A DNA stretch of 314 nucleotides from Escherichia coli (GTDB lineage: Bacteria > Pseudomonadota > Gammaproteobacteria > Enterobacterales > Enterobacteriaceae): NCBI RefSeq assembly GCF_003334385.1, contig NZ_QOWN01000207.1. One strand, given 5' to 3'. Positions 1-314 of the stretch are shown piece after piece. The position numbers and the translations under genes are program-made. The notes below the pieces were generated by a model. The model was given only the letters and a program-made list of their open reading frames with translations, did not search any database and was not told where the DNA came from. The stretch's first letter is position 1. Each line of letters starts with the position of its first letter.

Positions 1-313
1 AGAGAGCGTAGGCCAGTTCGTCATCCAGTGTTTTCCATGTCTGCTTGTATTCGCGATGAATGGCAGCAATGACCGGGTTGATTTTTCCTGTTGAATTTTC
101 AGTGTGCTGTTGATTGGCTCTGGCGCGGGCGAGATCAACAACAGACGTGTATTTTCCGGCTTCCTTGCGTTCACCTTCGCGACGTTTTTTCCAGATGCGC
201 ATCTCTGCCTGAATTTCGGGCCATTTGGCACCAGGCTTACATTTATGCTTAACCCACCCGATGGCATGCAGCTTAAGCTCCGGATACATGGCGTTAACTT
301 CTGGCATTTTCAT
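1..313 (-). CDS. Hypothetical protein, partial (N-terminal 104 codons; C-terminus beyond the window start). Hydrophilic with a basic Lys/Arg cluster; function not recognised.
   Basis: Reverse-complement translation from the ATG at + 311-313 runs 104 sense codons to + 2 with no stop, leaving + 1 as the first base of the next codon. The other two minus-strand frames stop within the first few codons. Codon usage favours CTG, CCG, GCC, CGC, AAA and GAA, typical of enterobacterial genes. Amino-acid composition is protein-like and mixed charged/hydrophobic. The true start is uncertain because only one base lies upstream of the ATG inside the window, so no Shine-Dalgarno can be checked and the frame could extend further upstream. 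Confidence 0.8.
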   Translation of the reverse strand, partial: MKMPEVNAMYPELKLHAIGWVKHKCKPGAKWPEIQAEMRIWKKRREGERKEAGKYTSVVDLARARANQQHTENSTGKINPVIAAIHREYKQTWKTLDDELAYAL

Positions 314-314
314 C

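Follow-up and report, generated by a model that had tools for sequence, protein, structure and literature searches.

Three ATG codons at the edge of a 314-nucleotide Escherichia coli sequence are internal codons of a Qin/CP-933P-type prophage exonuclease gene

The closest described systems to the sequence analysed here, a 314-nucleotide (nt) stretch of Escherichia coli DNA (contig NZ_QOWN01000207.1; hereafter the window), are the genes annotated as 'exonuclease' or '3'-5' exonuclease' in Qin/CP-933P-type lambdoid prophages (PHROG 2082; e.g., WP_016238688.1 of strain VR50 and VUF53467.1 of phage mEp460_ev081) and the gene for RecE (exonuclease VIII; NCBIfam NF007259) of the Rac prophage. The presence of DnaQ-like nucleases in lambdoid recombination modules has already been described (PMC12315714, section 9). 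The gene in the window is the same as the Qin/CP-933P exonuclease gene, with no difference identified. The window is a piece from the interior of a known and abundantly annotated gene. Three in-frame ATGs lie close to its end, on the minus strand. An initial annotation made from the window had placed a start codon at this edge and left the true start open. We found that the gene starts well outside the window, and that the three ATGs are ordinary internal methionine codons rather than start codons.

The ATGs appear on the + strand as CAT at 311-313, 305-307 and 287-289 and share one minus-strand frame. That frame is open over the entire window (104 codons, MKMPEVNAMYPELKLHAIGW...DDELAYAL), and the coding strand starts GATGAAAATG; many stops are present in the remaining two minus-strand frames. 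The initial annotation read these coordinates correctly, directly from the sequence, as it did the single base (G at 314 on the coding strand, C on the + strand) that precedes the first ATG. In the numbering of the full protein its Met1, Met3 and Met9 are Met155 (311-313), Met157 (305-307) and Met163 (287-289), respectively. It overlooked a fourth in-frame ATG, Met192 (200-202, minus strand), which is also internal.

Read on the minus strand, the window matches positions 4001-4314 of a locus from O157:H7 strain TR01 with 100% identity (L001; the reverse complement is an exact match), and lies within an annotated coding sequence (CDS). The same sequence occurs without change in the intact 2472-nt genes of strains VR50 and ML35. 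Positions 1-313 (minus strand) correspond to codons 155-258 of the 823-codon gene, based on the open frame, sequence identity and the match of the window peptide to positions 155-258 of the 823-position PHROG 2082 profile (E 2e-74). The full-length protein (from locus L002) scores 1855 bits over 1-822 of this profile and belongs to the family.

The start codon was located from the public copies of the gene. We inspected 12 annotated loci, and all of them place the start of the CDS at one and the same ATG, which precedes window position 313 by 462 nt (154 codons). Translation of the extension shows that no stop interrupts the frame between this ATG and the window (...DGHIVEAL-MKMPEVNAMYPE...). 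In both loci that were translated, an in-frame TAA occurs three codons ahead of the annotated ATG. The eight loci checked share the upstream context AATGAGGTAAAACAAAATG, with minor variants, which includes a GAGGT Shine-Dalgarno sequence 8-9 nt upstream of the ATG. The initial annotation had suggested extending the sequence, noting that an open upstream stretch leading to a better-placed ribosome binding site and start would put the beginning of the gene outside the window. Identical public copies have exactly this form, with 154 open codons reaching back to such a site and ATG. Thus, no ambiguity about the start codon is left. Of the two options it favoured, Met1 or a start further upstream, the second was right; Met1 is the internal Met155.

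Calculated pairing with the anti-Shine-Dalgarno sequence of 16S rRNA separates the annotated start from the ATGs at the window edge. The best duplex at the annotated ATG has an energy of -6.3 to -6.9 kcal/mol (eight loci computed), and pairing of -6.3 kcal/mol or stronger is found at only 6.9% of positions in the open reading frame (ORF), for which the mean is -2.56 kcal/mol. The corresponding values are -0.2 kcal/mol for Met155, -0.2 kcal/mol for Met157 and -0.5 kcal/mol for Met163, and none of the three has the pairing about 5-10 nt upstream by which a translation start was judged. The GATGAAA ahead of Met157, which had been dismissed as an unconvincing Shine-Dalgarno sequence, was correctly dismissed. 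Pairing at Met192 (-3.6 kcal/mol) is about 0.4 standard deviations stronger than the ORF-wide mean and within the ordinary range. We infer from the sequence that ribosomes actually use the annotated start. Translation would begin at the ATG with the GAGGT motif, 462 nt beyond window position 313, and elongating ribosomes would read Met155, Met157 and Met163 as ordinary methionines within a predicted helical N-terminal domain (residues ~105-205).

The codons upstream of the window evolve as coding sequence. The ratio of nonsynonymous to synonymous substitution rates (dN/dS) was estimated by comparing L002 with L005, L008, L006, L007 and L003 (89-96% nucleotide identity). Over codons 1-154 it is 0.06-0.16 in the gene frame; when the frame is shifted, the two alternatives give 1.2-2.3. 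Purifying selection acts on this upstream stretch in the gene frame. A start at any of the edge ATGs would have been expected to lack such constraint ahead of it. For the window codons themselves, dN/dS in the minus-strand frame is 0.16-0.18 in the two most diverged comparisons.

Comparison of homologue N-termini, also proposed in the initial annotation, gives the same placement of the start. We searched 1.84 billion representatives exhaustively with HMMER for matches to residues 1-300, obtained 117, and compared the N-termini of the 44 matches at least 480 aa long. Of these long representatives, 41 of 44 carry ~93-250 residues before the column of residue 104, and in most of the homologues listed the alignment begins with their own residues 3-15 at query residues 3-5. 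By this measure the edge ATGs are not supported as starts. Among 45 aligned family members, Met155 is retained in four and Met157 in five (it is Thr in the PPompW phages, L005). Met163, which lies in the motif (A/S)MYPE, is more widely conserved (Met in 32/45, Leu in 8/45), and its replacements by Leu, Ala or Ile (13/45 together) are the pattern that would be expected of a buried or structural hydrophobic residue. The Met192 column is variable among homologues. When the 104-aa peptide was used in a word-indexed homologue search, all of the matches were fragments or frameshifted pieces, and of the 25 such proteins inspected none starts at MKMPEV, MPEVNA or MYPELK. PF27430 and PF27432 are listed by the protein database for fragmentary proteins over this segment.

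The proximity of the three ATGs to each other is statistically unremarkable. The full protein includes 18 methionines in 823 residues, and at least three methionines within a nine-residue stretch occurred in 781 of 5000 shuffles of it (16%). A group of ATGs near the end of a short sequence gives weak grounds for calling a start.

An AlphaFold2 model of residues 1-300 (47-sequence alignment; mean predicted local distance difference test score, pLDDT, 90.5) predicts an alpha/beta domain (residues ~1-100), an all-helical domain with pLDDT 97-98 (residues ~105-205), a low-confidence linker (residues 206-245) and further helices from residue 247 onward. Residues 155-163 fall inside the helical domain, with Met155 at the end of a predicted helix (146-156), and a start in this region would remove three helices of the domain. 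No informative relative of the confidently predicted domains of the N-terminal 300 residues was found among solved structures.

Taking these lines together, it is close to certain that the window comprises codons 155-258 of a long Qin/CP-933P-type exonuclease gene, with internal edge ATGs and a start upstream. Three observations weigh against this. The context of the window comes from identical and near-identical public copies and not from its own flanks. In some 1.5% of the window-holding records, the colinear 835-nt extension is missing at a coverage threshold of 80% (it is present in 3,849 vs 3,906 records). Finally, P0087, a representative protein of 176 aa, starts at the Met155 column (MKTPEI...). 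The sequence of P0087 is full of frameshifts, and we regard its start as an artefact of gene calling.

Such cases bear on the possibility that, in the source genome, the upstream part of the gene is broken by an insertion sequence (IS), a deletion or a frameshift, leaving a pseudogene for which a gene caller might choose an edge ATG. Decay of this gene is frequent (IS1203 in TR01, IS2 in K-12, a deletion in a BL21-type strain, frameshifts in O145 and PPompW), and many frameshifted fragments are recorded, including P0087 with its start at the Met155 column after frameshifts. However, every disruption that we identified is inside or downstream of the window, none falls between the true start and the window, and the colinear upstream part is kept in 3,849 of the 3,906 window-holding records. 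Even in a broken copy the edge ATGs would be relics of internal codons and not an evolved start. We consider disruption of this kind very unlikely.

Another reading would make Met155 or Met163 a real secondary, internal start, giving an isoform that lacks the first alpha/beta domain together with half of the helical one. The edge ATGs exist and are in frame, and Met163 is conserved in 32/45 family members. In long RecE-type proteins such as Rac RecE, the nuclease can remain functional after truncation from the N-terminus, and this also counts in favour of an internal start. However, anti-Shine-Dalgarno pairing at these codons (-0.2 to -0.5 kcal/mol) falls short of the ORF average, neither Met155 nor Met157 is conserved, and Met163 is exchanged for Leu, Ala or Ile in 13/45 members, as a structural residue would be. 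The site lies mid-domain, where pLDDT is 97-98, and no promoter-like site was found in the window. A secondary start here is therefore highly improbable, and the same applies to the more specific proposal that a shorter isoform without the N-terminal alpha/beta domain arises at a low level from a leaderless-like or Shine-Dalgarno-independent start at Met163 or Met155. That the feature belongs instead to the + strand, as an antisense ORF or regulatory RNA with incidental minus-strand ATGs, has a negligible probability: there are two + strand ORFs (91-252, 53 aa; 114-212, 32 aa) and one terminator-like hairpin (165-182), but neither ORF extends to 287-314, a single terminator-like site is within shuffle expectation (mean 0.6, standard deviation 0.8), and the substitutions fit the minus-strand frame (dN/dS 0.16-0.18).

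The significance of assigning the window to codons 155-258 of the exonuclease gene is bookkeeping only: the window should carry the label of an internal piece of a known gene for a prophage exonuclease, not that of a gene start. The gene is widespread. Of 5,426 complete E. coli genomes, 3,946 gave a Megablast match to the window, with a CDS named 'exonuclease' or similar underlying it in every case. A single genome can have up to six copies of the segment, and identity is 99% or higher in 898 records. DNA identity to the window is 100% in VR50, ML35 and O157:H7 and 99.7% in phage mEp460_ev081, one of 17 phage records with a match (others include Tritos, Evi, HannyBb, PhiR42_1 and PPompW/Stx2a phages). 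The exact 823-aa protein is recorded on 296 contigs, and its 90% cluster has 18,012 members, with the names 'exonuclease' or '3'-5' exoribonuclease'. The gene continues beyond both ends of the window; it is probably a small contig from a repeat common to several prophages, which would account for both ends being inside the gene. For many of the public proteins over this segment, the source contig is just 229-541 nt long.

The 823-aa protein encoded by the full gene (L002 3540-6011) is a mosaic of an N-terminal part (1-244), a RecE-like part (245-626) and a DEDDh part (642-813). Residues 642-813 match PF16473 (Rv2179c-like 3'-5' exoribonuclease; Pfam) with E 1.5e-66 over model positions 2-177 of 177, placing the protein in the DEDDh/DnaQ-like family by a domain that is outside the window. 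This domain also matches RNase_T weakly, PADLOC gave just a weak generic DEDDh match, and sequence matches in the PDB are to 8kel/8ken ('Exodeoxyribonuclease'), over 643-776.

Residues 245-626 are homologous to the central region of Rac RecE (274.6 bits), and the last 14 codons of the window are within this region. The two genes also have the same place in the early-left operon of a lambdoid prophage. However, 274.6 bits is far under the NF007259 equivalog cut-off of 1269 bits, and residues 1-244, with most of the window (155-244), are unmatched by the RecE model. The C-terminal nuclease domains also differ, being DEDDh 3'-5' here vs the 5'-3' nuclease of RecE. The loci inspected have no annotated gene separating the exonuclease from xis; thus, there is no recT there. 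Although it is not an equivalog of RecE, the exonuclease fills the RecE position of the early-left operon. The name 'exonuclease VIII', given in some records, is not supported by comparison with the RecE family.

We identified few other features in the window. The two + strand ORFs (53 and 32 aa) are considered to be chance antisense ORFs inside a constrained gene. The + strand hairpin at 165-182 is followed by CGTTTTTTCC (165-192 in all), antisense to the gene. An Rfam scan of the window gave no match at E ≤1, and a promoter scan of the window no promoter-like site. The only repeats in the window are a 10-nt two-copy direct repeat and a 13-nt imperfect inverted repeat, both judged to be due to chance.

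In Qin/CP-933P-type lambdoid prophages, intact copies of the gene (2472 nt, 823 codons) are arranged as dicB - ydfD - exonuclease - xis - int, and the gene lies in the early-left operon of these prophages in E. coli. In K-12, the orthologue is an exonuclease pseudogene of Qin that adjoins ydfD and was historically named ydfE. It has ~95% DNA identity and the same start codon and Shine-Dalgarno sequence, but is cut by IS2 at about window position 8-9 (L003 3328), so that only codons 1 to ~256 are left. In the literature on ydfE and Qin we found nothing on the start or function of the exonuclease gene. In the BL21(DE3)-derived strain Nico21 (L004 4056-4068), similarity to the window ends at about position 280, just past Met163, and the xisR excisionase gene lies within ~10 nt after this point. 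The arrangement points to loss of the rest of the exonuclease gene, probably by deletion. The exact-window copy of O157:H7 TR01 is interrupted by IS1203 (L001 4625-5930) ~310 nt downstream of the window and is annotated as two pseudogene pieces, and the gene is frameshifted in O145 and PPompW. In phage Tritos, the DicF antisense small RNA is annotated upstream of dicB (L006 1904-1956), in the same operon as the exonuclease gene. Thus, the Qin-type dicB operon context is confirmed.
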